Sequence record: PV660452
Direction: 5' to 3' (one strand)
Origin: Escherichia phage LF82-9
DNA length: 64,000 nucleotides
Part shown: positions 3,382 through 46,375 of the stretch, one piece after another
Position numbering within the stretch: the stretch's first letter is position 1
How the letters are laid out: every line of letters begins with the position of its first letter
Translations under genes and position numbers: made by a program
Notes under the pieces: model-generated
What the model was told of the DNA's origin: nothing
Databases searched by the model: none
Seen by the model: the letters and a program-made list of their open reading frames with translations, nothing else

Positions 3382-4397
3382 TGTGTTGCCTCAATATAAA
3401 GTTCGTTGGAATATTTAACCAGCGCTTCTCTGTCTTCGTTTGAGATATCTGGAATCGCGTCAATATATTCTTTAATGATATCTTGAAGTGATTTAATCTC
3501 GATTTCCTGGTCGTCATCAGATTCAACACTGTTATCAACTTTAGAAACCATACGAAGAGAGTGAACTACTTTTTCAAGTTCAGATTCAAATTTAGTCAAC
3601 TCTGAATCAATTTCTGATACTATAACACGTACGGCTAGATTAGTATAATCAGAATAATTGATTTTGCCTTTAAATGGATAAGTGATTCGTCGATGCCATG
3701 TTGTTTCATTAGGAATAAATTCCATACGTTCAACATCAGTGTCAAATACCCAGAATCCGCGAGGGTCGTTCTCGTCACCTGCAGTAAGGGTCCATGGTGT
3801 CCCAATATATTTGACGTTAGCAGCTTCAGAGATTGTGTGGAAGTGGCCAGACCAGACTTGTTTATAGGTCTTTAAGAAATCAGGTTCAAGCCCATGAGAC
3901 TTCATTCCTTTATAGAAATAAAAGCCGTTCAGTTCCCAGTGGCCAACACAATACGCGGCAGAAGAAGTCTTGATGTGCTCTAAGATTTCACCTGTATTTT
4001 CTTCACACATCCATGGAACGATATCAATCAGACATCCGTCAAAATCTACAGTAGTTGGATGCTCGTAAATAGTAAAGTTTTCAAATTGAGTCAACAATTC
4101 AGAAACAGTGTTAGGTGTTATTGTATTCTTAAACGCCATGTCATGGTTTCCTATCGTGACATGAACGTGAATGCCTGCTTTAGAAATCATATCAACGATT
4201 TCACGATTGAATTCCATTGTACGATGTGTTATTGCTTTACGGACGTCAAACCAATCACCGTACTGAATCCAAGTTTTAATCCCGTGTTTCTTAGAGTATT
4301 CAATTGCTTGACGAATACCATCACGTTGAATATCTTGGACCCATGGGTCGTCTTGTTTGACTCCGATATGGAAGTCGCCTAAGTGCAAAATTTTCAT
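3378..4397 (-). CDS. 47: Recombination endonuclease subunit gp47 (Mre11/SbcD-like nuclease)
   Basis: 339 aa, same length as T4 gp47; phosphoesterase motifs GDFH, GDWFD, GNHD, GHWE, GHFH. Confidence 0.92.
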   Translation of the reverse strand: MKILHLGDFHIGVKQDDPWVQDIQRDGIRQAIEYSKKHGIKTWIQYGDWFDVRKAITHRTMEFNREIVDMISKAGIHVHVTIGNHDMAFKNTITPNTVSELLTQFENFTIYEHPTTVDFDGCLIDIVPWMCEENTGEILEHIKTSSAAYCVGHWELNGFYFYKGMKSHGLEPDFLKTYKQVWSGHFHTISEAANVKYIGTPWTLTAGDENDPRGFWVFDTDVERMEFIPNETTWHRRITYPFKGKINYSDYTNLAVRVIVSEIDSELTKFESELEKVVHSLRMVSKVDNSVESDDDQEIEIKSLQDIIKEYIDAIPDISNEDREALVKYSNELYIEATQ

Positions 4398-4443
4398 ATT
4401 ATTTCCTCATTAGTTAATTCATTCTATCATCCGTTTATAAAGC

Positions 4444-4467
4444 AAAAAAGGAACTCCGAAGAGTTCC
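4444..4467 (-). terminator. Intrinsic terminator hairpin (GGAACTC-ttcg-GAGTTCC) plus U-run on the minus-strand transcript
   Basis: Perfect 7-bp inverted repeat at 4450-4467 followed on the minus strand by TTTTTT (plus-strand AAAAAA 4444-4449). Confidence 0.6.
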
Positions 4468-4640
4468 TATCCACATAGTACACCGTACAGAGGCTCATTT
4501 GAACTTTTAAATCGAATGGGCTTGTACGTAATAGTTCCTTCGGCTTTAGCTTTATCATAAGACTCTTTAAAACGTCTCATTCTTTCTGCTTTGCCTTTAC
4601 GGATTTTATCGAAATTTTCAGAAGTCGGGATGTTCGTCAT
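4467..4640 (-). CDS. Hypothetical small basic protein (57 aa); below the ORF-track size cutoff
   Basis: Manual translation MTNIPTSENFDKIRKGKAERMRRFKESYDKAKAEG...; SD GAGGTG upstream; terminator directly after the stop. Confidence 0.45.
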   Translation of the reverse strand: MTNIPTSENFDKIRKGKAERMRRFKESYDKAKAEGTITYKPIRFKSSNEPLYGVLCG

Positions 4641-4679
4641 GCATAAGCACCTCTCAGAAAATGCCTAAATCGATTTCTC

Positions 4680-4901
4680 TCATCGTTTCCACCATTTCTT
4701 AACTTGAAATGAATCAACCCACACGAGTTGTTTTGGGTCTGCCTTTACAATAGGCGGACAAATTTCTGTAATAGAACCGTCGTGATATTCCTTTTCGGAA
4801 ATTTTAACACAAAGAGGACCTCCCAATTTAAGGGAGAACCCTGCGTTCAGCTTCAGACGTTTAAACTTTGTTTGAACTAGCGCCATTAATGATGTCCTCA
4901 A
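4680..4901 (-). CDS. Hypothetical protein (73 aa)
   Basis: ORF track only; start uncertain. Confidence 0.35.
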   Translation of the reverse strand: MRTSLMALVQTKFKRLKLNAGFSLKLGGPLCVKISEKEYHDGSITEICPPIVKADPKQLVWVDSFQVKKWWKR

Positions 4902-5184
4902 TAGCCTGACGAGTAGTAATCCACTGGATTTTAATTAACTTGTCATTGTATGGTTGTCGTAGAATATCCCGAGATTTCTTAATAGCATATTCGTAAGCTT
5001 CGAAGTTGTTTTGAATTGCTGCTTCTTGAGCATGTGCATAAAGACGGTTTAGTTCAAAACGATTCTTTTTAAGAATCTTTTCGGATTTTTTACGTGCTTC
5101 AGCTTCATTTTTCTTTTGGATTTCTTGTAGCATTTTAGCTACTGCATCTTCTGCTTCTTTATTTTCAATAATCTCGGTAGTCAT
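4861..5184 (-). CDS. Hypothetical protein (107 aa), K/E-rich helical
   Basis: ORF track; lies where alpha-glucosyltransferase sits in T4. Confidence 0.45.
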   Translation of the reverse strand: MTTEIIENKEAEDAVAKMLQEIQKKNEAEARKKSEKILKKNRFELNRLYAHAQEAAIQNNFEAYEYAIKKSRDILRQPYNDKLIKIQWITTRQAIEDIINGASSNKV

Positions 5185-5185
5185 A

Positions 5186-5401
5186 TTATCTCATTAAATT
5201 AAAATAAAAACGTCCATCCTCTTCAATACAGAACTCGTACTCAACTGGAGTCCCATTTATTGAAAATGACACGTCATGTGGGTTCAAAGGGTCGATGTCA
5301 AAATTAATTTTAAATTCACGACCCAACAGTTTTACCAAATAAGGGATTGCTTCGTCAAAAGGTTCTTCTAAGTAGTTAGAGATGTCAATTGTCATCCTCA
5401 T
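5186..5401 (-). CDS. Hypothetical protein (71 aa)
   Basis: ORF track 5186..5479 trimmed to the internal ATG (MRMTIDIS...) so it no longer overlaps gene 55. Confidence 0.4.
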
Positions 5402-5942
5402 ATAAAAAATCCAAACTAGGCGAATCGCTAACAACTTCCTTCTTTTCAGCCCCAGGAGCTTTATAAGCGGATTCTTCATAATGCGTCATTTTATCGTAGA
5501 TGTCTTGAATAAACGTTTCATCTACCAACGCTACCATATCATCGTCATGACTGTCGTAGACATTATGAACGAAGTAACTATATTTCTTTGCAACTTCCTT
5601 ACGTTCTTTTTTGATACGTTGGACAAAAGCATTAAAACAAGCTCGAGTTATGTATGCATGTGGGTTATTGTACTTAGTTTCGTCGAAATTATGAAGTCCC
5701 TTAATAGAGGCTTCAATCCCATCTGCAATCATCTCCTGCTTCCAAGACTGGGTATATCCTGAAAAGTTGAAACGTTTGGACAGGCCTTCGGCGATAAGCA
5801 TAATTGCTAAACCGATGGTATCATTCTGACGAATAATTTTGTTTGGGTCTTTATTATTTAAGAGCTCCTTTTTCCACTCGATTATAGCGGCGAGAAGCTC
5901 TTTATTATTCACATAGTTATTTTTAGGTTTTTGTTCAGTCAT
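5385..5942 (-). CDS. 55: Late-transcription sigma factor gp55
   Basis: 185 aa from ATG at 5942 (SD AGAGG); sequence ...[23 protein letters not shown]...[39 protein letters not shown] matches T4 gp55 from memory. Confidence 0.9.
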
Positions 5943-5963
5943 AAGTACCTCTTGGCTCAATTC

Positions 5964-5996
5964 ATAGGTCTATTATATCATAATATTTAGAGACCT
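5964..5996 (-). promoter_or_regulatory. Stem-loop-embedded TATAAT element upstream of gene 55 (promoter-stem-loop cassette; -35 weak)
   Basis: 8-bp inverted repeat ATAGGTCT/AGACCTAT enclosing minus-strand TATAAT. Confidence 0.35.
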
Positions 5997-6014
5997 ATCT
6001 TAAAGCACGAGATA

Positions 6015-6284
6015 CTATCGGAGCAAACAATAAGCCTGGAATACTTTTTCCATTAAACGTTTGAACTCATGGATATCGATATAAAGCTCGGTTAATCCAG
6101 CTCCATAAAGAAAATCTAAAAAGTTCTCATGTGTTTCGTTATAGTCGCCTTCGTTTAATTGAGATACATGAGTTTCCCAAAAACCGACACCTTTAACAAA
6201 TGGAAAATACGTAACTTTCATAAAGTTGTCGACGTAAAATTCGCCCAGCTTTTCTTCAGTTATACTGATTCGAGTTAATTTCAT
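6015..6284 (-). CDS. Hypothetical protein (89 aa)
   Basis: ORF track; coupled 4-nt overlap with the upstream gene. Confidence 0.45.
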   Translation of the reverse strand: MKLTRISITEEKLGEFYVDNFMKVTYFPFVKGVGFWETHVSQLNEGDYNETHENFLDFLYGAGLTELYIDIHEFKRLMEKVFQAYCLLR

Positions 6285-6508
6285 TCTAGTTCCTTTGCTG
6301 CAAATAAGGCAGCATCCAATGAATCAAATTGGTCAACGAAATCAATATTCAACGCATCGTCAACCGTAGCATATAACCACCATTGTTTGAATTCGTATTC
6401 TAGAATAAATCCAGGACCTTCAATCTGAGGAAGACCTAGGCTATTTGTACCAACTTCGTAACCAGCTAGACGCAGGTCATTAATCAAAGTTTCTGTTAAT
6501 ACGCTCAT
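6281..6508 (-). CDS. Hypothetical acidic protein (75 aa)
   Basis: ORF track. Confidence 0.45.
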   Translation of the reverse strand: MSVLTETLINDLRLAGYEVGTNSLGLPQIEGPGFILEYEFKQWWLYATVDDALNIDFVDQFDSLDAALFAAKELE

Positions 6509-6837
6509 TTTGCCGCCTTAACAATTTTCAGGTCAACGAATTTTTTCTTACGTTGATTTTTCATACGACGGATAGTCTTTTCAGAGATTTCATGTTTCTG
6601 ATAAGCTTTAGATTCAACACCAAATGCAGCAACGTCAAATTCAGAAAGAATATATTGTACTAGAATTTCACGAATAGAATTACGTCCAATTTTCTGGTCG
6701 TGTTTTTGCATGATTTCATAAAGACGGAATTCCCACGCGTCAAGAACTTGAGGAGTAACAATACCACCTTTTTCTAGAAGACTAACAACTTTATCGAAAG
6801 CGAAAGAGTTCACTACGTTTTTGATTTTAGTAGACAT
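6505..6837 (-). CDS. Hypothetical protein (110 aa from ATG MSTKIKN)
   Basis: ORF track 6505..6876 begins at a TTG; ATG at 6837 is preceded by GAGGAAAATAAT. Confidence 0.5.
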   Translation of the reverse strand: MSTKIKNVVNSFAFDKVVSLLEKGGIVTPQVLDAWEFRLYEIMQKHDQKIGRNSIREILVQYILSEFDVAAFGVESKAYQKHEISEKTIRRMKNQRKKKFVDLKIVKAAK

Positions 6838-6868
6838 ATTATTTTCCTCTGTTATTTTATTATCCAAC

Positions 6869-6905
6869 GAGAGCATTATACTCTGCTCTCAAGAGTTTGT
6901 GCGTT
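6869..6905 (-). promoter_or_regulatory. Promoter-stem-loop cassette (TATAAT inside 7-bp stem GAGAGCA/TGCTCTC); near-identical copy at 36955-36998
   Basis: Minus-strand TATAAT; 44-nt segment repeated with one mismatch 30 kb away. Confidence 0.45.
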
Positions 6906-7143
6906 ATTTCGTGATAAGATAATGTAAATAGTTTGCTTGACGAACACTGATATCAACACCCATATCAAAGATACCTTTATAGAACGGGTATTTGTTTTCA
7001 GTAGAATCTAGACTAAAAGCCTTTCCGCCACAACTAACGGTAATAGCATCAGTTAAAGTGTCATATACAAACTTAATAGTTGAGCCGTTCACTACAACTT
7101 CAAGACGTTTTTTCGATGTAATAATGTCTAATTCTTGTTCCAT
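6904..7143 (-). CDS. Hypothetical protein (79 aa)
   Basis: ORF track. Confidence 0.45.
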   Translation of the reverse strand: MEQELDIITSKKRLEVVVNGSTIKFVYDTLTDAITVSCGGKAFSLDSTENKYPFYKGIFDMGVDISVRQANYLHYLITK

Positions 7144-29964: not shown

Positions 29965-30246
29965 CTATTTTTCTGAAGCGCCTGAAATATATTTTTCAAG
30001 ACGTTGTTTCATCAGCGAGCCGTTCTTAGCGATTTCTTCCGGTTTATCGCACATACGTAACAAGGCTTCAAGCTTAGCGATATCGCTGGTACGTTCAAAT
30101 TTGCGAGTATCTATCTTACTAGCAAGTTCAGAAATACGTGCTAATAGACTTTCGGCTTCAACCAAAGCTGCACCTAGCTTAGTTGCAAATGTGTCAGTAG
30201 CTTCGTTAAGAATAGATTCTGATAAAAATTCACTATATGTTTTCAT
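29965..30246 (-). CDS. Internal-protein-like with capsid-targeting leader ([11 protein letters not shown]), 93 aa
   Basis: ATG at 30246 overlaps the lysozyme stop (ATGA); leader similarity. Confidence 0.55.
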
Positions 30247-30731
30247 ATATACGCTTTCCAAGTTCCTGTTTTAAATGTTGAGATTACGCGTTTCGCGCGA
30301 TTAGGTGTCTGACGATACCATTTAGATTGGGCGAGATTTACTGCCGCTTCATCCCAACGTTTCTGTTGAAGCATACGAAGAGAATTAGTAAAACCAGCAA
30401 CGCCTGCTACACCCATTTGGAAGACCATATTGACCAATGCACACCGACGAACTGCATCTAAAGAATCATATACCGGTTTAAGTTTAGCATTACCCAAGAT
30501 TCCGCGAACGGCTTTATCGACGTCTTCATTAAATAGCTTTTCAGCCTCATCAAGGGTAATTGTACCGTTGCATTTACGACCGATCATTCTGTCAAGTTCA
30601 GCTTTAGCTACGGCTAAAGACGGGTTCTTTGTTACCAAGTGGCCTATGCCAATCGTCCAAAAGCCTTCAGTGTCTTTGTATAAAGTCAGTCTAAGACCTT
30701 CGTCATTACGAAGCATTTCAAATATATTCAT
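30243..30731 (-). CDS. e: Lysozyme (endolysin) e
   Basis: [32 protein letters not shown]...[22 protein letters not shown] matches T4 lysozyme; SD GGGAGG. Confidence 0.93.
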
Positions 30732-30763
30732 AATACCTCCCACGTTTATAGGAGGTATTTATT
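30732..30763 (-). promoter_or_regulatory. RBS-sequestering hairpin of the lysozyme gene with an embedded late-promoter-like TATAAACG
   Basis: 9-bp inverted repeat AATACCTCC/GGAGGTATT covers the e Shine-Dalgarno; TATAAACG lies in the loop. Confidence 0.55.
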
Positions 30764-30765
30764 AC

Positions 30766-31224
30766 TTATAGGATGGTAGTGAGCACCTTATATAATGATT
30801 TGCCCATTACATATTCCCATTGAGAAGGTTTAATTAAAGCGAATGCATCAAATTCAGGAATCTGTCGTCCGTCCTGGAATGTATGATATGAATTACAAAC
30901 ACTGTTTCTGAATTGCTCGTGCTCTACAGGGATGGTATATAGGAACAGATGAATATTCTTATTGTCTGAGTAATGATGTTCACCTAGGTCTTTCAGGAAG
31001 GCAGGGTCATATTGTGTAAACCCAGTTTCTTCTTCGCATTCACGAATAGCGGCTTCGATAGGAGATTCGCCAGGTTCGACACGGCCTTTAGGAATATCCC
31101 ACCGATGAGCTAATGCACCTTTAGGACGAGAACCAGTTACACGACCCATGAATAATTCTTTATCTTTTGTCATGAAGATAATACCGGCTGATAGTTCTTT
31201 CACTTTATTTTTCTTACTCATCAT
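30766..31224 (-). CDS. Nudix hydrolase (T4 e.1/NudE-like)
   Basis: Nudix box GRVEPGESPIEAAIRECEEETG. Confidence 0.8.
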   Translation of the reverse strand: MMSKKNKVKELSAGIIFMTKDKELFMGRVTGSRPKGALAHRWDIPKGRVEPGESPIEAAIRECEEETGFTQYDPAFLKDLGEHHYSDNKNIHLFLYTIPVEHEQFRNSVCNSYHTFQDGRQIPEFDAFALIKPSQWEYVMGKSLYKVLTTIL

Positions 31225-31465
31225 CTCGGTCCCATGATTTGGCCATTAATTCGGACATAAATTCTTCAATACGCGTTTCTTTAGATGGACTTTCACTATT
31301 AGAGACCGCAAGTTTGTAATCTGCAATAGGACTGAACAAATCAAGGTCCGTATTAAGGTCGTCTTTGATTTTTTCTTCTGACACATCTTTATCATATGTG
31401 TACAGATAACTATCACATGATTCTGATTTAATGTAAATTGCTATACTCATCTCAAATTCCTGCAT
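31214..31465 (-). CDS. Hypothetical acidic protein (83 aa or shorter)
   Basis: ORF track; internal ATG MSIAIY has the better RBS. Confidence 0.45.
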   Translation of the reverse strand: MQEFEMSIAIYIKSESCDSYLYTYDKDVSEEKIKDDLNTDLDLFSPIADYKLAVSNSESPSKETRIEEFMSELMAKSWDRDDE

Positions 31466-31830
31466 TCGGTAATAAAACGTTCAACTTCGTTATTCTTGGC
31501 CTTTATCTTGTCTTTACGTTCCTGTAAACTACTTTTAACAAGATTAATAATGATGCCTATAGTACCTCCACCAATTATACCACCAATTATACTTACGATA
31601 GTAGATGCCAATAAGATAGCGATAATATCTGGTATGGCAAAGGCACTTACTTTAGTACTAAAAAACCATACCGACGGTACAAATATAATCCATCCTGTTA
31701 TCCATTGGCACTTATTGAAAAACTTTTCAAGATCAGCTTGAGTTGTTCGTATTACTTCATCGATAGGTTGATATCCATTAATGTATCTGTTCACGATAAT
31801 ACCTTCGTTGCCATCGTCTATATTAACCAA
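31447..31830 (-). CDS. Hypothetical membrane protein (127 aa) ending in the FITECR junction motif
   Basis: Two hydrophobic helices; C-terminus ...ERFITECRNLR. Confidence 0.5.
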   Translation of the reverse strand: MVNIDDGNEGIIVNRYINGYQPIDEVIRTTQADLEKFFNKCQWITGWIIFVPSVWFFSTKVSAFAIPDIIAILLASTIVSIIGGIIGGGTIGIIINLVKSSLQERKDKIKAKNNEVERFITECRNLR

Positions 31831-31846
31831 TATGTTTTGTTAATCA

Positions 31847-32533
31847 TTACCAGCCTTCCATAGGGAATTCCAGATAAACTTGGGCATTGACGCGAATTTC
31901 ATTGGTAATCTTTTTAACTCGGTCTGTATTACGAGATACACGTCCGAACCAACGCCATCCATTACTAATTGCACGAGAACCAGTGTGCCATGTTTGCCAA
32001 TCAAACTGAAGAAGAGTACGGTCTGGAGCTTCCCATTTCTCTAGTTCACCTTTTTCAATTTTTTCGAGGACTTCTTTGTGCCATTGGCGATAGATAAGTT
32101 CGCCATCAGGAATCTGACTGAACTCTGCAGTTCCTGTTGCAAAATGAGTAGGACACACGTCAGCGTTAACAAGACCAAGAATATGTTCAGACAAATAGCG
32201 AGGATTGTCATAGTCAGGTTGTCCTGCAGTAATAAAATGTTGACCAACCGGAATATCCGGGCGTGGTACATCATCATGGTGATAACCTGGGATAGCAGGG
32301 TACCAACCAGGCATCAGCATGTGGACTCGTGAATCAAATACAACCTGGTCGGTGTTCCAATCATCCGGCAAGTTCATGATGAAGCTGCGAGTAATAGGAC
32401 CGCCGTTATTATAAGCAAATTCTAAACTACAGTTGAAGAACATAGGCTCGTTCTTGATTTTATCATTAGAAATACCGCCGGCAAAACCACCTACTGCACG
32501 AGCTTGACTATTAAACACTTTAGAACTATTCAT
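31847..32533 (-). CDS. Hypothetical protein (228 aa), H/W-rich
   Basis: ORF track; SD GAGGAAAATAAT upstream. Confidence 0.55.
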   Translation of the reverse strand: MNSSKVFNSQARAVGGFAGGISNDKIKNEPMFFNCSLEFAYNNGGPITRSFIMNLPDDWNTDQVVFDSRVHMLMPGWYPAIPGYHHDDVPRPDIPVGQHFITAGQPDYDNPRYLSEHILGLVNADVCPTHFATGTAEFSQIPDGELIYRQWHKEVLEKIEKGELEKWEAPDRTLLQFDWQTWHTGSRAISNGWRWFGRVSRNTDRVKKITNEIRVNAQVYLEFPMEGW

Positions 32534-32534
32534 A

Positions 32535-32840
32535 TTATTTTCCTCGACATTCTTTAATGAAATTTTCTAGATTGGTAGATTCAATAGCTTTTTTACGAGC
32601 TTCTGCATGTTCTTCTTCAGACAATTTACATTTATAATTAACCCAGACGTTATGGTCAAAACTAGTCGTGGCATATAATAACAAAGCCCCGACGAATAAT
32701 AAAAATGGCGATAAGAATACAAAACCAGGAACACCATCCATATCGTAAGCCTTTTGTAATACTGCAACAGAAAGAGCTGCGTAAAAAAGTGATACAAATA
32801 TTGTTAAAAGACCAATTCGGTTGGTTTCTGTTAATTTCAT
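32535..32840 (-). CDS. Hypothetical membrane protein (101 aa) ending in ENFIKECRGK
   Basis: Two hydrophobic helices; shared C-terminal motif. Confidence 0.5.
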   Translation of the reverse strand: MKLTETNRIGLLTIFVSLFYAALSVAVLQKAYDMDGVPGFVFLSPFLLFVGALLLYATTSFDHNVWVNYKCKLSEEEHAEARKKAIESTNLENFIKECRGK

Positions 32841-32868
32841 AATATTCTCCTCATGTTTTAATAGGACT

Positions 32869-32898
32869 ACTATAACATAGTCCTATAATTGTGTAAAC
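32869..32898 (-). promoter_or_regulatory. Early-promoter cassette (GTTTAC; ATAGGACTA/TAGTCCTAT stem)
   Basis: Minus strand GTTTACACAATTATAGGACTATGTTATAGTAGTCCTATT. Confidence 0.5.
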
Positions 32899-32910
32899 AG
32901 TTTTGTGAAA

Positions 32911-33867
32911 TTATTTGAAAGGTTTTACCATATGAAAGTTTTGTTTGAAACGCTTGACGTAATCGTCGTGTCCTAAGCTTTGGTACATACTTACTACTTT
33001 GCTATAATTTTCCCAAGCGAACTCACGGAACCATCCTGATGTGATTGATGTACAGACCTTTTCAAGGGCCATCATAAAACTATCACGTGGATGGATTTCA
33101 AAGTTATTAGGAATCTGAGAACGTTCTAACGCTAGTACACATGATTCTTCGTATACGCCGGCCAATTTGACCATTTCTGGTAATGATTCGAACTTCTCGC
33201 GTGAGGTCATGACTTCAGAACCATCTTTCATATAAAATGTATACGCTGGACGGTCCGTTAGTGCAATGGCTTCGTGAATAGTATCATGGTCATACGTATA
33301 GATGTCATCTTTAAAGAATGCGCTTTTAGAAGTGTCAAGAACTGGGTGAGCATAGTTCAAGGTTTCTTTCTGGCGTTTCAGCATAATTTCATTAAGTTCA
33401 TCGTTCAGTGTAACACCTTTACCACGAAGATACTGAATATGGTTCATAGTCTTTAAAAAGAATGGATTATTTTTCTTGAAACGATGGGACATCTTAATTG
33501 CAAGGCACATCTCAGGAGTTGCCCAGTAAAACCCGTTCAAACGGTCTTTAGTCAAATTTTTCTTGGCGTATTTTAAAAGGTCATAAGAAGACGTGAAATC
33601 TTCAGGAGTGAGTTCACCGACTAATTCACGGACATTAGTGATTGCCGGAACAATATATGCTTCAAAATGAGTTTCGCGCCCATTATGGAAGCATTTGAAA
33701 ACTTGGACATCAGGGTTATCTTGGTGAACATATACACCCATCATTTGATTTTTGAATGCATTCCAAGAACCTTGGTCCGCAATAAAGTCCCAATCACTAT
33801 TTTTAATAGCGCTAGAATCAATAAGACCGTGATAGTGAAGTGCACGAGAACCAATAACTAACATCAT
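32911..33867 (-). CDS. Hypothetical protein (318 aa) with nucleotidyltransferase-like N-terminal motif
   Basis: N-terminus MMLVIGSRALHYHGLIDSSAIKNSDWDFIAD (GS ... SDWDF); spacing longer than canonical, assignment tentative. Confidence 0.5.
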   Translation of the reverse strand: MMLVIGSRALHYHGLIDSSAIKNSDWDFIADQGSWNAFKNQMMGVYVHQDNPDVQVFKCFHNGRETHFEAYIVPAITNVRELVGELTPEDFTSSYDLLKYAKKNLTKDRLNGFYWATPEMCLAIKMSHRFKKNNPFFLKTMNHIQYLRGKGVTLNDELNEIMLKRQKETLNYAHPVLDTSKSAFFKDDIYTYDHDTIHEAIALTDRPAYTFYMKDGSEVMTSREKFESLPEMVKLAGVYEESCVLALERSQIPNNFEIHPRDSFMMALEKVCTSITSGWFREFAWENYSKVVSMYQSLGHDDYVKRFKQNFHMVKPFK

Positions 33868-33895
33868 AATATTTTCCTCGGATTAATTCATTAAC

Positions 33896-34147
33896 TTAAA
33901 TTTCACGACATGCGATATTATATTCATCCCAGAGGTCATCATGTGAAGCCTCTACCAATGGAACGATTGTACCGTTTATGTCTTCATTATAAGGGCAAAT
34001 TGTACAGTGCGCATCTTCGAATCGGATGCCTTTGTGTTCAGATTTTTTATAACGCATATCGAATATCTTTGCAAACTTTTCACGAGTAATGGTTTTACCA
34101 ACCACTTTGGTTCCGATACTTTCGTAATAAATCATTGTGGACTCCAT
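33896..34147 (-). CDS. Hypothetical protein (83 aa)
   Basis: ORF track. Confidence 0.45.
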   Translation of the reverse strand: MESTMIYYESIGTKVVGKTITREKFAKIFDMRYKKSEHKGIRFEDAHCTICPYNEDINGTIVPLVEASHDDLWDEYNIACREI

Positions 34148-34163
34148 TTGTTTTGATAGGACT

Positions 34164-34193
34164 ACTATAACATAGCCCTATCTTGTTGTAAAC
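34164..34193 (-). promoter_or_regulatory. Early-promoter cassette (GTTTAC; ATAGGACTA / TAGCCCTAT stem)
   Basis: Near-duplicate of the cassette at 32869-32898. Confidence 0.5.
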
Positions 34194-34197
34194 TGTT

Positions 34198-34395
34198 TTA
34201 GCAAGAATAACTAGATGATACCCAGCCTTGAACAGTGATACTATTGTGGGATAATGAGATCGCGTCCTGGAGATTCAGACCTGCGTTATCTTCAATCCAT
34301 AATGTAACTTCTTCGCGTTCTTCTGTTGCAATTTGGAACAGGTTTTCCAGAGCAGCTACTGCCGTACGTACAGCACAATCTAATTCACGAGACAT
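34198..34395 (-). CDS. Hypothetical protein (65 aa)
   Basis: ORF track. Confidence 0.4.
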   Translation of the reverse strand: MSRELDCAVRTAVAALENLFQIATEEREEVTLWIEDNAGLNLQDAISLSHNSITVQGWVSSSYSC

Positions 34396-34404
34396 ATGAT
34401 TTCC

Positions 34405-34677
34405 TTAGCATTCCATAGAAGATGCAACCCAACCACCTGATTCGAGGCTGGTGTAATATGAGTGTTGGTTGACAGTGGCCCAATTCGGATTGCCTTGTTC
34501 GGTATAATGCTCAAGTTCTTTTTTCAAGAATCCAGGAGAATAATACGTTCCACCCATACCATAAGCTGGATACAAGTCGAATGTTGTGTTTTGTTTATCA
34601 GCAATTTCTTTGGCAGCCTCAATAGCTGCATAGATTTTTGCTACAGCTTCAGCCAGTTCGGTTTGTTCTTTAGACAT
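34405..34677 (-). CDS. Hypothetical protein (90 aa); paralog of the next gene (shared C-terminus GGWVASSMEC)
   Basis: Both start MSK..., share YYSPG/YYPKG and end WVASS-x-x-C. Confidence 0.5.
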   Translation of the reverse strand: MSKEQTELAEAVAKIYAAIEAAKEIADKQNTTFDLYPAYGMGGTYYSPGFLKKELEHYTEQGNPNWATVNQHSYYTSLESGGWVASSMEC

Positions 34678-34686
34678 AATGATTCC

Positions 34687-34992
34687 TTAGCACAACGCAG
34701 AAGACGAAACCCAAGCACCTTCAGTAATAACGTAACCATTACCTTCACGCTTAACATCGCCACCATTATTTTCAATTTCATCTTTCATCCACTGGGATAC
34801 GATTTCACCCTTAGGATAATAAGTACGACCGCTACCATAATCACCTACAGAAAACGATACAGCGTATTGGTCTGCAATCTTTGTAGCTTCTTCTTCGATA
34901 CGTTCAGCTTGATTCAGAAGTTTATAAATTGCATCTGAAGCGGATTTGGCATCATTAAACTCTGGTACTTTAATTTCAATAATCTTACTCAT
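34687..34992 (-). CDS. Hypothetical protein (101 aa); paralog of the previous gene (C-terminus GAWVASSALC)
   Basis: Shared N- and C-terminal motifs with 34405..34677. Confidence 0.5.
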   Translation of the reverse strand: MSKIIEIKVPEFNDAKSASDAIYKLLNQAERIEEEATKIADQYAVSFSVGDYGSGRTYYPKGEIVSQWMKDEIENNGGDVKREGNGYVITEGAWVSSSALC

Positions 34993-35348
34993 TTTCTACA
35001 TTCCTTAATAAAGTTTTCTATTGTTTCATTTTCACGTCTAGCTAGGAGTTCATTATAACTAATCATTTGAGAAGCGTAAACCTTTTTATTTTTCTTGTTA
35101 TGGTTTATAAAATCGTAGTAAAAATAGACTACAGTACAAAATGATGCGATGGATGCAAAGGCTTGAGTATATCGTAAGTCCTGCCATTGGTCTGTGAATC
35201 CACCGGTGTTCCCTATAAATCCTAACACAACTCCGTCAATAAGAAATCCAACTAATCCAAAGGCAAATCCCATGCCAATACTCATAATAAAAATTAGAAT
35301 GTTCTCACCGAGAGAAGGCCGTACGGTTAAGAGTTGAGGCTTTTGCAT
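34989..35348 (-). CDS. Hypothetical membrane protein (119 aa) ending in ENFIKECRK
   Basis: Two hydrophobic helices; shared C-terminal motif. Confidence 0.5.
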   Translation of the reverse strand: MQKPQLLTVRPSLGENILIFIMSIGMGFAFGLVGFLIDGVVLGFIGNTGGFTDQWQDLRYTQAFASIASFCTVVYFYYDFINHNKKNKKVYASQMISYNELLARRENETIENFIKECRK

Positions 35349-35722
35349 CTTATTTCCTTAACGAATTCCATAGCTTCTTCATATTCATACTTTTTAACAG
35401 CTTCAACATACTGAGCTTGGGCTTTTGCGCACTGAACTTTCCACTCGCGAACTCGAGCTCTGTGATGACGGCCTTGGTGCCAATATCCTGCCCAATTAAT
35501 AGGCATTAATAAAAACGGTACAATAAGTGGTGCGACGAACATTAATGAAAACGCTGCATCAGACGTTATAACTTTATTGGAATCTAAAATAGCTCCTATA
35601 ATCATAAAGATTAAAAATGCTAAAGCTAAAATAGGGCCAAATAGTACTTCGTTTGGGATTAATTTACGTTTGTATTCGTATGCCCAGGGCTTAATTGGCA
35701 TGTACAGGGTTGGCTTTGACAT
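35327..35722 (-). CDS. Hypothetical membrane protein (131 aa) ending in MEFVKEIRC...
   Basis: ORF track 35327..35752 trimmed to ATG at 35722; hydrophobic helices. Confidence 0.45.
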   Translation of the reverse strand: MSKPTLYMPIKPWAYEYKRKLIPNEVLFGPILALAFLIFMIIGAILDSNKVITSDAAFSLMFVAPLIVPFLLMPINWAGYWHQGRHHRARVREWKVQCAKAQAQYVEAVKKYEYEEAMEFVKEIRCKSLNS

Positions 35723-36308
35723 ATTCTCTACATTCCATAATAAATTGCTCAAGGATTAAATTGTTAGTGAAATTAGGACTAACAACCATAGTTTCATAAA
35801 GCGCATCAATAGCACTTAAAGCATCAACTCTTTTAAGCAAAGGCTTGCCTTCATACATAGTTTCAGAATCGATGATTAACGTAAAGTAATATTTTTTATT
35901 ATCGACTAGAACTTCTGTATCGATATAAAACATATTAGACCTCAGAAGCTTATCTCTAAAACCATAATAATCTTCTGAACGTTCGCTGATATATTCCCAT
36001 TCAGTGTTTAAACAACAAACAGACCATGTAGGAGCAACGAAATCAGTGAATCTAATATCATGGTCTGCAACTAGTTTAGCAATAGCTCCGATATCATGAA
36101 TCATAATACCTGGGGCTAATAAAGATTTTCGGCGATTTGCGTATTCAGTTGTCTCATAAGAAGCTGACCAGTACCATTTACGTCCAGTTGCAACATATCG
36201 TAATGAATCAACTAAAGACGTAGGTGGATTTACCTTATCTCGGAACTCTTCGAACATTGAGTCAATATCATTATTTTGGTTTCGCATGTTAACTCCTTTA
36301 TTATCCAA
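35691..36308 (-). CDS. Hypothetical protein (205 aa) ending in EQFIMECREY...
   Basis: ORF track. Confidence 0.55.
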   Translation of the reverse strand: MDNKGVNMRNQNNDIDSMFEEFRDKVNPPTSLVDSLRYVATGRKWYWSASYETTEYANRRKSLLAPGIMIHDIGAIAKLVADHDIRFTDFVAPTWSVCCLNTEWEYISERSEDYYGFRDKLLRSNMFYIDTEVLVDNKKYYFTLIIDSETMYEGKPLLKRVDALSAIDALYETMVVSPNFTNNLILEQFIMECREYVKANPVHAN

Positions 36309-36336
36309 AAGGAGGACCGGAGTCCTCCGTATTATT

Positions 36337-36930
36337 TTATTTCAAAGAGTTAATATATTCTTGTACATCAGCAGAAGTGGTTTCGACACCGGCTGGAGTA
36401 CCATTGAACGTTTCAACACGAGTCAGAGTGTCTTCGATATCAACCTTAGTCAGTGCAGCGATTTCAATTACATCATCGGCCGTAGAGATACCAAGGGCAT
36501 TGGCTGCTCGAGTTTCACGAATGTATTCGAGTTTGATTGCCAGGTTCTGACGAGCATCGTCAAGTTCAACCACCTTACGAGCAATTTCAATTCGCATAGC
36601 GGCATACCCGTCAGCTTTTGTATTAAGTTGTTCGGCAGTTCGACGATACAGAAGACCAAGCTTAGCATGCATGGTAACATCTTGTCCTTCAGCCAGGAGC
36701 TTACGAATTTCACGTTCCTTAGAAGCGGCTTGCTTGTTCTTTTCATTAACAAGTTCGCGAATACGTTTTTCTTCATTAATAGATTTAACAGAAGCCGTTT
36801 TTAGTTCTTTGATCTGGGTAATCAACTTATCTGCAGCTGCGTTATACTGTTCTTCGACAGTCAGATTTTTAGCCATAGCAGTACCCAGTTTAGTGCGGAT
36901 AAATTCAACAAGTTTCTTCAGTGTGTTCAT
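36337..36930 (-). CDS. PspA/IM30-like all-helical coiled-coil protein (197 aa); assignment tentative
   Basis: Length and continuous heptad-rich composition resemble the PspA/Vipp1 family; ATG at 36930 with SD AAAGGTAA. Confidence 0.4.
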
Positions 36931-36971
36931 ATTATTACCTTTCAATTGGTGGTTTATTATCCAATGAGAGC

Positions 36972-37000
36972 ATTATACTCTGCTCTCAAGAGTTTGTAAA
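36972..37000 (-). promoter_or_regulatory. Early promoter (TTTACA-N17-TATAAT inside GAGAGCA/TGCTCTC stem); near-identical to 6869-6905
   Basis: Minus strand TTTACAAACTCTTGAGAGCAGAGTATAATGCTCTC. Confidence 0.55.
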
Positions 37001-37228
37001 TTATTTTTTAATCAAATTGACATAAAACTTGGCGTCTTCGGGGTGCATGCCTTCGCAGTATTCTTCAACCATGAAATTCTTAACAGCTTCATAAGGACCA
37101 CTCAGATTAAGCTCAGTTGTCCAAAACTTGGAATCTTGGACTGAATCGATACGAACTTCAGGATGACGATTGCGAATAACTTCTTCGGTGTATTCATAAT
37201 CAACGACATCAATACTAACTTTAGCCAT
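37001..37228 (-). CDS. Hypothetical protein (75 aa)
   Basis: ORF track. Confidence 0.45.
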   Translation of the reverse strand: MAKVSIDVVDYEYTEEVIRNRHPEVRIDSVQDSKFWTTELNLSGPYEAVKNFMVEEYCEGMHPEDAKFYVNLIKK

Positions 37229-43777: not shown

Positions 43778-44362
43778 TTAACGCAAGGAAGGGTGTCTAG
43801 AAATGGATTTAGATTCGGCTGCTTGACGAGGCTGTTGAGATACAATGACTTCGCCGTCTTTTTCTATCGTCATATACGCGTAGTGAATAGTTGCTACGCA
43901 CGTAACGGCAGGATCAGAATCTTCAGTGTAACTAAATTCAATTTCGCTCAAATCAGAAATCCATGGTTTATAGAAATTTGCCGTCAAAACGACTTCAGTC
44001 TTATTGTTGTTTAAAATGTGCAAAGTAACAAACTCAGGACCATCGGCATGGGCTGTATTATGACCGGTTATATAGTTATTAGTGCTGAGCATCCATTTAT
44101 ACATGTTCATCCAGGACGTCATGTCTTCATCAACTATAAATCGTACAATAAAAGGGTCATATTCAAATGTAGTGCCTGCGCGCATTGCACGTCCTAACCC
44201 CATTGTGCCTGTCACAGTTTCAACAACAGGAATTCTCACACCTGGCAATGGTGCCGTTTGGGCATTGAGCACAAAACCTGAAGTTCGTGTACTATCTGGG
44301 ATATCCACAACAAAGTTTGTTATATTTGTTTGGTTAAAAATCTGTCTCGTTGGACGAGTCAT
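43778..44362 (-). CDS. 3: Tail completion / tail-tube terminator protein gp3
   Basis: Position between genes 1 and 2; start placed at ATG 44362 (ORF-track start is GTG); N-terminal extent uncertain. Confidence 0.7.
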   Translation of the reverse strand: MTRPTRQIFNQTNITNFVVDIPDSTRTSGFVLNAQTAPLPGVRIPVVETVTGTMGLGRAMRAGTTFEYDPFIVRFIVDEDMTSWMNMYKWMLSTNNYITGHNTAHADGPEFVTLHILNNNKTEVVLTANFYKPWISDLSEIEFSYTEDSDPAVTCVATIHYAYMTIEKDGEVIVSQQPRQAAESKSISRHPSLR

Positions 44363-45799: not shown

Positions 45800-46375
45800 T
45801 TGTTATTTACATTCTTCGACCCAATAGGATATAGTGCTAAAACAGTTGATAAGAATGCACCTACTATTCCTATGACAGACATATTTCGTAACTATAAAGA
45901 GTACTTTAAACGTGTTGCTGCCAATTATAGATTACGTTCTTATTACATTAAAGGCTCTCCACGTCCTGAAGAACTAGCAAACATAATTTATGGCAACCCT
46001 CAATTATACTGGGTCCTTTTGATGTGTAATGATAACTATGATCCGTATTATGGTTGGATTACATCTCAGGAAGCAGCGTATCAAGCGTCTATTCAGAAAT
46101 ATGCAAATGCTGGCGGAGACCAAATTCTTTACCATATTAACGAGAATCGTGAGAAATTTTACAATTTAGTTTCATACCCAGACGAGCCTTTAGTGTGGTA
46201 TGATAAAGGTGATGAAGCTCGTAAGTATCCGCAATATAAAGGACCTTTAGCTGCAGTAGATACTTATGAAGCGGCAATATTAGATAATGAAAAACTTCGT
46301 AAAATAAAAATTGTTGCAAAAGAAGATATAAACTCGTTTATTACTGATTTGATTCGTGAGATGGAGATTGCATAA
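45800..46375 (+). CDS. 53: Baseplate wedge protein gp53 (apparent TTG start)
   Basis: MLFTFFDPIGYSAKTVDKNAPTIPMTDIFRNYKEYFKR... matches T4 gp53; first codon TTG with SD AAGGAG 7 nt upstream; no in-frame ATG. Confidence 0.88.
   Translation: MLFTFFDPIGYSAKTVDKNAPTIPMTDIFRNYKEYFKRVAANYRLRSYYIKGSPRPEELANIIYGNPQLYWVLLMCNDNYDPYYGWITSQEAAYQASIQKYANAGGDQILYHINENREKFYNLVSYPDEPLVWYDKGDEARKYPQYKGPLAAVDTYEAAILDNEKLRKIKIVAKEDINSFITDLIREMEIA

Follow-up and report, generated by a model that had tools for sequence, protein, structure and literature searches.

A C-terminal motif repeated in the e.2–e.5 genes of T4-type phages: probably a docking helix of the proteins rather than a DNA junction element

Ordinary translational coupling in compact phage operons uses ATGA overlaps, with the Shine-Dalgarno (SD) sequence inside the upstream ORF. 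At the protein level, several T4 proteins, gp43, gp33 and gp55 among them, bind the gp45 sliding clamp through common C-terminal docking peptides. In the Vipp1/ESCRT-III superfamily, a short helix (α5) docked on the hairpin tip of a neighbour is a known assembly contact (PMC8281802). At the DNA level, modular shuffling of T4-type genomes is mediated by promoter-early stem-loop (PeSL) elements (PMC2839356, PMC4122927). A short repeat at the ends of five genes in a 64,000-nucleotide stretch of Escherichia phage LF82-9 (PV660452; hereafter the window) shares some features with each of these systems.

The window belongs to Mosigvirus (RB69-like T4-type phages), and the motif carriers are the orthologues of T4 e.2, e.3, e.4 and e.5 and an extra e.2-like gene missing from T4 and JS98, all on the minus strand. 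The first-pass annotation had pointed to these five gene ends and taken four of the carriers for small membrane proteins; all five were found in their places, and hydropathy gives two transmembrane (TM) segments for four of them, the e.5 product being soluble. The transcription unit is headed by the conserved e.6 orthologue (36337..36930, 197 aa), which is a neighbour of all the motif-bearing genes. One promoter-like site is located upstream of e.6, and the gap between e.6 and e.5 contains no promoter but only a terminator-like hairpin (36311..36328, minus strand), directly followed by the SD of e.5 (AAAGGAG). The e.5 orthologue (35691..36287, 198 aa, phrog_2607) ends in EQFIMECREYVKANPVHAN, with the motif LEQFIMECR at 35727-35744 and a further 11 residues overlapping the start of e.4 (ATG 35722-35720). 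In an AF2 model of low confidence (pLDDT 60) this motif is inside a predicted helix (residues 177-192); a fold search with so poor a model gave TM scores of at most 0.29, which are meaningless. The e.4 orthologue (35327..35722, 131 aa, two TM, phrog_2604) ends in MEFVKEIRCKSLNS, and in its degenerate motif, MEFVKEIR at 35348-35365, the ATG of e.3 (35348-35346) begins within the Arg codon. The e.3 orthologue (34989..35348, 119 aa, phrog_2330) is a membrane protein with a single broad hydrophobic segment (residues 15-48), taken as two TM, and ends in ENFIKECRK; its motif, IENFIKECR at 34995-35012, runs into an ATGA stop/start overlap with the following gene (ATG 34992-34990). The extra e.2-like gene (32535..32840, 101 aa, two TM, phrog_2203) ends in ENFIKECRGK, with LENFIKECR at 32544-32561 and the ATG of a 228-aa gene at 32533-32531. 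The e.2 orthologue (31447..31830, also phrog_2203) has lost 1 nt at codon 8 and, in another deletion, 90 nt, so that its N-terminus is damaged and an open frame of 127 aa remains, ending in ERFITECRNLR; VERFITECR is at 31459-31476, in an ATGA overlap with a 78-aa gene (ATG 31450-31448).

The recurrence is far beyond chance. With the entire 64 kb translated in all six frames, F[IV].E[CI]R is found five times against 0.19 per shuffle, none of 300 shuffles reaching five, and E.FI.ECR occurs four times against 0.003 expected. Every copy of the former is in frame and close to the C-terminus of a gene, and the four exact matches of a degenerate DNA pattern, TTYATTANNGAATGYMGR, are all at motif sites. 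In T4, of which 139 of 169 kb was examined, the strict motif is found in e.2, e.3 and e.5 only, together with a degenerate form in e.4; e.3 has EFVIDCRKIK, e.4 KFVKESRC and e.5 KFVKECREY, and e.2 of T6 and RB14 has NNFITECRKLK.

Because the motif proteins evolve too fast for sequence searches, e.6 was used as a synteny anchor for finding copies in other phages. A related-locus search with e.3 gave only two near-identical loci, a word-indexed protein search only close relatives of e.3 and e.5, an exhaustive phmmer search with e.5 only Mosigvirus and Tequatrovirus clusters, and a PDB sequence search with e.5 and e.6 no match. A scan of IMG/VR, which holds few coliphage T4-like genomes, with a degenerate DNA pattern gave 44 loci, almost all of them chance matches in unrelated viruses, and the literature searched held nothing relevant on the motif peptides, T4 e.3–e.6 or PspA in T4-like phages. 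In total, 14 phages, representing about as many genera, gave 46 copies (43 clear, three degenerate), every one of them downstream of e.6. Phe is present in 35 of them, Ile in 31 or Val in 13 at the next position, Cys in 35, Arg in 42, and Leu, Ile, Val or Phe at -3 in 38, which gives the consensus hydrophobic(-3)-x-x-[F/W/Y]-[I/V]-x-x-C-R, located 0 to 27 residues before the stop codon. In place of Cys, the e.4-type copies have Ile, Val, Met or Ser, and WSPA and Vi01 have Ala; a thiol-specific role is therefore unlikely.

The following ATG is located between 1 nt inside the Arg codon and 10 nt past it at all five junctions of the window, each of which also has a purine run resembling an SD that overlaps either the motif or the next codon. 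The first-pass annotation had correctly seen that the repeated block holds the SD and start of the next gene, and had offered two interpretations, a by-product of a repeated coupling junction that acts as a recombination linker, or a functional tag; the latter is supported, whereas the former is largely refuted. For the junction reading, a portable cassette of about 25 nt with SD and start would have been duplicated between genes, would be where homologous or illegitimate recombination takes place, and would impose the peptide on any ORF reading through it. Besides the five overlaps, it can draw on ORF130c, which is present or absent, depending on the genus, exactly between the junction ATG of e.2 and the ATG of nudE, and on the e.2 tail, which is intact despite the damaged gene body in the window and the frameshift in the T4 reference. 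This in-frame tail runs against a protein tag, and junction DNA could matter for the downstream ribosome binding site (RBS) even when the protein is lost. However, the nucleotide core common to the junctions is about 18 nt, or six codons, instead of the 25 nt first proposed, with 10-17 of 18 positions identical between copies; no similarity is seen beyond it, the flanks being at background, and the longest exact run common to any two copies is 10 nt. At the wobble positions of F, I and C, codon choice matches that of the genome (TTT:TTC 17:9 against a background of 0.62/0.38; TGT:TGC 18:11 against 0.66/0.34). Relative to the motif, the SD and ATG shift between -1 and +28 nt. Eight copies in relatives (JS98 orf131, IME523 234 aa, Roth21 186 aa and 102 aa, Merlin 214 aa, CHI14 273 aa, RB43 306 aa and Aeromonas AS4 315 aa) either are separated by at least 14 nt from the next start or lack a coupled one, so that the motif is kept where it does not serve as an RBS for the downstream gene. 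JS98 keeps the SD of the 228-aa gene without any motif upstream. None of the indels relative to APCEc01, phiE142, JS98 and T4 has its breakpoint at a motif copy, and the intergenic ones are in promoter/stem-loop (PeSL-type) DNA; relative to the first three phages, breakpoints are inside genes, in PeSL-type intergenic DNA, or between motif and SD. Like the motif, PeSL elements are short repeats between genes of hyperplastic regions, but they are non-coding, with an early promoter and a stem-loop, at least about 50 nt long, similar at the nucleotide level over tens of bases, and located at indel boundaries, whereas the motif is inside ORFs, 18 nt long, conserved only as amino acids and away from such boundaries. 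Genuine PeSL cassettes occur in the window at 32841-32910, 34148-34197 and 36931-37005, with promoter/stem-loop elements at 32897-32869, 34192-34164 and 37000-36972. Overall, a mobile junction is a very improbable origin of the repeat.

The nucleotide overlay on the motif is dual coding only, occurring when the downstream start is adjacent. T4-type genes abut or overlap, and therefore the codons of a C-terminal motif inevitably fall where the next RBS must be; this second constraint is absorbed at the free positions of the motif. If the next ATG follows within 4 nt, the SD is spelled by the two variable codons (AAGGAA, AAAGGA, GAGGAA, AGGAGC), as is the AAGGA for the gene after e.3 by the K-E codons of e.3. 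When the ATG is 7-10 nt away, the SD comes from a purine-rich Arg codon and the codon after it (AGGA, CGAGGA, AGAGG), as in GAGGA for the 228-aa gene, made of CGA (Arg) and GGA of the extra e.2-like gene. Arg is encoded by AGA, AGG or CGA in 16 of 18 copies with the next ATG within 10 nt and in two of eight far copies (background 35%; Fisher p=0.003), such p-values being optimistic because the copies are not phylogenetically independent. An SD 4-mer is found within the variable codons of 9 of 12 adjacent copies and of none of 17 others. All five junctions of the window are of the translational-coupling type, with the SD in the upstream ORF and the start overlapping the upstream stop or motif or within about 10 nt of it, an arrangement that is not universal in relatives. 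Coupling accounts for the purine-rich Arg and the variable codons, but neither for the invariant F, I/V and C nor for the decoupled copies.

As judged from these sequences, selection at the amino-acid level keeps the motif in at least six protein families and at least 12 phage genera, in support of the functional tag. The carriers comprise soluble e.5-like proteins and several two-TM families without detectable homology outside the tail. The proteins at the e.5 position form one divergent family in which the motif is within the last conserved helix. That the carriers are otherwise unrelated, as first proposed, is right for most groups: tail-masked BLAST and hhalign of 10 groups related only two pairs, e.2 with the 'w' group (86% probability) and e.4 with the e.3-like group of other phages (71%), all others being at 14% or less, and the e.3 and e.4 of the window at only 14%. 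It does not apply to these two pairs or to e.2 and the extra gene, which both match phrog_2203. The same links, the tandem arrangement and an M-x-K-P-x-L N-terminus in both e.3 and e.4 would fit tandem-duplication paralogues whose tail is the slowest-evolving remnant of common descent, devoid of a common function. Such a relic is improbable, since a tail evolving slowest across 14 genera while the rest diverged past detection is itself purifying selection on the tail; moreover, nothing relates the soluble families (e.5-type, a 92-102 aa family and Roth21 102 aa) to those of the membrane proteins. A somewhat less unlikely alternative is an anchor at the membrane surface, in which an amphipathic basic C-terminal helix in the plane of the inner membrane would target the soluble e.5 product and stabilise the small membrane proteins, comparable to the membrane-targeting sequences of MinD and FtsA. 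An amphipathic helix is consistent with the hydrophobic periodicity (-3, 0, +1, +4) and with the R and K/R after it, and membrane proteins that have a basic juxtamembrane segment make up most of the carriers. However, the near-invariant F, C and R and the acids that often occupy the polar face (E at -2, -1, +3) are more specific than a generic lipid-binding helix requires, and in distant e.5 homologues the motif is 19-27 residues before the C-terminus, inside a longer conserved segment. Many copies are near stop/start overlaps, where the nascent peptide might slow termination or the ribosome and promote re-initiation on the next gene; the varying distance to the stop codon and the several copies without an adjacent downstream start make this the least credible explanation. 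Nascent-peptide arrest, a RegB (GGAG) site and a RegA operator were rejected on sequence, as GGAG is not conserved and the stop codon follows at no fixed distance. The repeat is probably a protein motif rather than a DNA element, a C-terminal amphipathic helix that would dock all carriers, on the cytoplasmic side, to one common partner. The same peptide recurs without other detectable homology, its amino acids conserved and its synonymous sites free, as in short linear motifs. Like the gp45-binding peptides, it is a short C-terminal peptide conserved as amino acids in unrelated phage proteins, with presumably one hub; it differs from them in sequence and in being carried mostly by small membrane proteins.

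For this partner, the e.6 product is the preferred, if tentative, candidate, to which synteny and operon structure point. With e.6 as the hub, the small membrane proteins would be interchangeable membrane adaptors, as PspB/PspC are for PspA and LiaI for LiaH. In all 14 phages examined, the gene directly after e.6 encodes a protein with the motif, intact or degenerate, and the pair of e.6 with an e.5-like gene is conserved in T4, Aeromonas phages, RB43 and Gualtarvirus and degenerate in Ackermannviridae. The AF2 model of e.6 (pLDDT 77), with helices at 2-22, 25-80, 86-145, 166-175 and 186-196, is a helical hairpin resembling PspA/Vipp1/ESCRT-III, and its Foldseek hits, perhaps not specific, are to Vipp1/PspA; the predicted fold has the layout of the superfamily, namely an N-terminal helix, a long α1-α2/3 hairpin, α4 and α5. 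In a profile search against PDB, Vipp1 is colinear over about 135 residues, but with E values of 1-2.4. The C-terminus of e.6 itself (EYINSLK) weakly resembles the motif; its PSSM rank, 4-52 of 299 control ORF tails, makes the resemblance not significant, and it was rejected as a further copy. It is conceivable, though doubtful, that the FIxxCR helix is the docking peptide of a phage Psp-like membrane system whose polymer, of the PspA/Vipp1/ESCRT-III type, would be e.6. By this one C-terminal helix, the e.5-type protein and a variable group of two-TM proteins would plug into the polymer, possibly where α5 binds the hairpin tip in the superfamily, and would anchor or regulate it at the inner membrane of the infected cell. 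The likeness to the PspA system lies in a predicted helical-hairpin protein encoded with several small membrane proteins having putatively cytoplasmic C-terminal helices. In contrast to that system, e.6 has no significant match in Pfam or NCBIfam, PspA_IM30 included, and the products of e.2, e.3, e.4 and the extra gene have none in Pfam, including the PspB, PspC and LiaI models, and match only PHROG families of unknown function.

The motif is a clean natural case of dual coding, in which a protein motif lends its free positions to the SD of the next gene, and it cautions against taking repeated gene-end sequences in compact phage genomes for recombination elements. The e.2–e.6 block is conserved across more than a thousand sequenced T4-like phages, yet no function is known for any of its genes. 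With one selected C-terminal helix in several of them and the constant company of e.6, these hypothetical proteins become a single testable module with a defined handle, the residues F, C and R.

The motif genes occupy 5.5 kb of the minus strand and, in the sense of transcription, immediately precede nudE (30766-31224) and the lysozyme gene e (30243-30743). Numerous genomes of Mosigvirus (RB69/JS09-like T4-type phages), Escherichia phage 55 and APCEc01 among them, share 94-96% identity with this region. By comparison with the T4 annotation, e.6 (36337-36930), e.5 (35691-36287), e.4 (35327-35722), e.3 (34989-35348) and an e.2 orthologue (31447-31830; "e.2" has 164 aa in JS98 and 163 aa in APCEc01) are assigned. 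An extra small gene (32535-32840) has no counterpart in T4 or JS98 and weakly matches phrog_2203, the PHROG of e.2. None of the five motif proteins (e.2 to e.5 and the extra gene product) has a Pfam match; e.5 homologues carry a precomputed, unnamed Pfam entry, PF26876. Promoter-like sites on the gene strand score best upstream of e.6, an 83-aa gene and the extra gene. The e.6-e.5 gap holds only a terminator-like hairpin, directly followed by the Shine-Dalgarno (SD) sequence of e.5, so e.6, e.5, e.4, e.3 and three small genes make up a single unit.

The C-termini of the five genes read exactly as in the first-pass annotation, sharing the motif hydrophobic(-3)-x-x-[F/W/Y]-[I/V]-x-x-C-R. Six-frame translation of the 64 kb yields five matches to F[IV].E[CI]R against a shuffle mean of 0.19, none of 300 shuffles reaching five, and four to E.FI.ECR against 0.003 expected. 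A degenerate DNA pattern has four exact matches in the window, all of them motif sites. The looser pattern [FW][IV]..C[RK] also matches ..YWVEECK-stop at 45806-45823 (minus strand), where just 37 codons are open upstream, and ..WFIEICR at 43967-43984 (plus strand), on the non-coding strand; both are probably due to chance, because 3.6 matches are expected per shuffle. Four of the five carriers are indeed membrane proteins, with two transmembrane segments each by hydropathy and none in e.5. The description of the five genes as otherwise unrelated has to be narrowed, since the extra gene and e.2 share phrog_2203 and a tail-masked comparison relates two pairs among 10 groups of carriers.

In T4, the motif is found in e.3 (..MKEFVIDCRKIK), e.4 (..MKFVKESRCKSQS) and e.5 (..LEKFVKECREYVKAITIPSK), and an intact 162-aa e.2 ending ..NLNNFITECRKLK is present in T6, RB14 and UTI-E2. 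In the 139 of 169 kb of T4 that were scanned, e.2, e.3 and e.5 are the only coding frames with the strict motif, and e.4 has a degenerate one. Among the best non-member scores of the PSSM control are the tails of T4 e.7 (..INAFIDELDEE) and e.8 (..AEEYFNNMK), whose genes are situated just upstream of e.6; this weak resemblance is possibly coincidental. Sequence searches with the fast-evolving motif proteins reached close relatives and nothing further, and therefore e.6, found in about 1100-1190 phage records, was taken as a synteny anchor. By tblastn, roughly 640 e.5 loci and 680 e.2 loci were recovered. The region after e.6 was read in JS98, IME523, Marfa, Roth21, Merlin, CHI14, RB43, WSPA, Aeromonas phage AS4, Providencia phage PSTRCR_121 and Salmonella phage Vi01. 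Motif proteins are encoded directly downstream of e.6 in every one of them, in degenerate form in WSPA and Vi01 (..IIHQAR.. and ..IVERAR..). In PSTRCR_121 (Gualtarvirus; 4133-6926), e.6 is directly followed by an array of six motif genes, most of which end C-R-G-[EK], and the codons for Arg and Gly (AGAGGT, CGAGGT) make up the SD of the next gene. Over 46 copies from 14 phages, position -3 is L/I/V/F in 38, the aromatic residue is F in 35, W in 4 and Y in 3, the following residue is I in 31 and V in 13, the variable positions are K in 21 and then E in 19, the Cys position is C in 35, and the Arg position is R in 42 and K in 4.

In the window (31798-31848), the e.2 orthologue has lost 1 nt at codon 8, which gives MINKTYWLI-stop. 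Compared with APCEc01, it also lacks 90 nt, deleted in frame between two direct repeats of GGTATT, and the remaining 127-codon frame begins at TTG with no obvious SD; this gene may be decaying. The annotated 102-aa T4 e.2 (NC_000866 67481-67960), compared with those of T6, RB14 and UTI-E2, appears to be cut short by a pair of compensating frameshifts: an in-frame TAG and TAA occur in frame 0, which then reopens into ..NNFITECRKLK. Either laboratory-strain mutation or an old sequencing error would account for them.

The first-pass annotation offered two readings of the repeat, a by-product of a repeated gene junction serving as a recombination linker or a functional tag of the proteins. For the former, a conserved nucleotide block had been described, and the ATG of the downstream gene does lie between 1 nt inside and 10 nt past the Arg codon in all five copies. 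Nucleotide similarity is confined to the motif's six codons, where 10-17 of 18 positions are identical; on either side it falls to background, and no two copies share an exact run longer than 10 nt. Four tests point to conservation at the protein level. Synonymous positions track genome codon usage: TTT:TTC is 17:9 for Phe (background 0.62/0.38), TGT:TGC 18:11 for Cys (0.66/0.34) and ATT/ATC/ATA 18/4/2 for Ile (0.59/0.25/0.15). The positions of the SD and start shift against the motif. With the ATG no more than 4 nt past the Arg codon, 9 of 12 copies have an SD 4-mer within the pair of variable codons (AAGGAA as K-E, AAAGGA as K-G, GAGGAA as E-E, AGGAGC as R-S); at 7-10 nt, the SD is made of the Arg codon and the following codon; further off, it lies elsewhere, with a variable-codon SD in 0 of 17 copies. 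Arg is AGA/AGG/CGA in 16 of 18 near copies versus 2 of 8 far copies (background 35%). A dual-coding overlay on the motif is clear, although its p-values (0.003 and 0.001) are indicative only, as they ignore the shared ancestry of the copies. The motif also persists where no ribosome-binding site needs it. In the e.5-position proteins of JS98, IME523, Roth21, Merlin and CHI14, Arg is CGT and the following gene has its own SD and begins 14-28 nt downstream; the motif is 25 residues before the stop in RB43 and 19 in AS4, where the next gene begins about 175 nt downstream; and in Roth21, a protein whose gene lies between nudE and e has the C-terminus ..FIAKCRAK, after which come TAAATA... and a hairpin but no start. 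Finally, tail-masked all-against-all BLAST and profile comparison finds just two related pairs (86% and 71%) among 10 groups, and the membrane families show no relationship to the e.5-type proteins, to a soluble 92-102 aa family or to other carriers. The e.5-position proteins align into one divergent family, in which the motif helix is the most conserved element.

Nor do indels break at the motif copies, as a linker would imply, and among the indels examined, none has its two ends in such copies. Relative to APCEc01, the 90-nt deletion and the 1-nt frameshift lie inside e.2, and a 262-nt insertion lies in intergenic DNA upstream of the extra gene and is marked by a cassette of the promoter-early stem-loop (PeSL) type, known as intergenic elements of T4-type genomes (PMC2839356). 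Such cassettes (TTTACA-N17-TATAGT/TATAAT plus an inverted repeat such as TAGGACTAT..ATAGTAGTCCTA) are found on the minus strand at 32841-32910, 34148-34197 and 36931-37005, the first two having copies at other intergenic sites of APCEc01. In phiE142 (apparently the 121-kb IMG/VR UViG_2974739009; 2484-2500), a deletion inside e.3 takes out about codons 5-88, leaving 12 nt at the start of the gene and its last 30 codons, with the motif and the junction that follows. In JS98, which lacks the extra gene, homology to the window restarts at the SD of a 228-aa gene, past the motif, and the ORF upstream of that gene is motif-free. The linker or by-product reading is accordingly rejected, with the examined indels elsewhere, alignment limited to six codons and codon usage at background; unlike PeSL cassettes, the motif junctions are ordinary translational-coupling junctions.

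A second family of C-terminal tails is present in the same region. Three tandem small proteins (34687-34992, 34405-34677 and 34198-34395; minus strand, together 34198-34992) end G-x-W-V-[AS]-S-S-x-x-C-stop (..GAWVSSSALC, ..GGWVASSMEC and ..QGWVSSSYSC), the last residue being invariably Cys. This family has four members in JS98 and five in IME523, and in these relatives most of the genes lead into a TAAGGAAAnnnnATG junction; further members occur in Marfa, Merlin, CHI14 and WSPA. In the window, TAAGGAA follows only the middle gene.

The fold evidence for e.6 is mixed. Its predicted model (31 sequences, pLDDT 77) begins with a helix and continues into a long hairpin, with two short helices at the C-terminus. 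In Foldseek, Vipp1 or CdvB2 takes each of the nine top ranks (best E=5e-4, probability 1.0, TM about 0.5), with PspA itself at ranks 32 and 41. A profile search against the PDB aligns Vipp1 colinearly, yet with E of 1-2.4, and Pfam and NCBIfam give no match. On this mixed evidence, a PspA/Vipp1-like e.6 is reasonably likely. In Vipp1/ESCRT-III assemblies, the contact is made by a short helix, alpha5, on the hairpin tip of the neighbouring subunit (PMC8281802). The C-terminus of e.6 itself weakly resembles the motif, in which hydrophobic residues at -3, 0, +1 and +4, then R and K/R, form an amphipathic-helix pattern. AF2 predicts a helix at e.5 residues 177-192, and the tails would be cytoplasmic by positive-inside reasoning. 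From these features, the motif is proposed to be a common docking helix, for which the e.6 product would be the preferred candidate partner.

T4 replication and transcription proteins carry clamp-binding C-terminal tails, and the motif is likewise a C-terminal peptide common to unrelated phage proteins. In the literature searched, neither the motif nor a PspA-like e.6 of T4 is mentioned. As small membrane proteins encoded next to a PspA-like protein, its carriers recall PspB/C-PspA or LiaI-LiaH, although the PspB, PspC and LiaI family models do not match them. The reading of the motif as a functional tag is supported, and its function may be docking, with e.6 as the putative partner.
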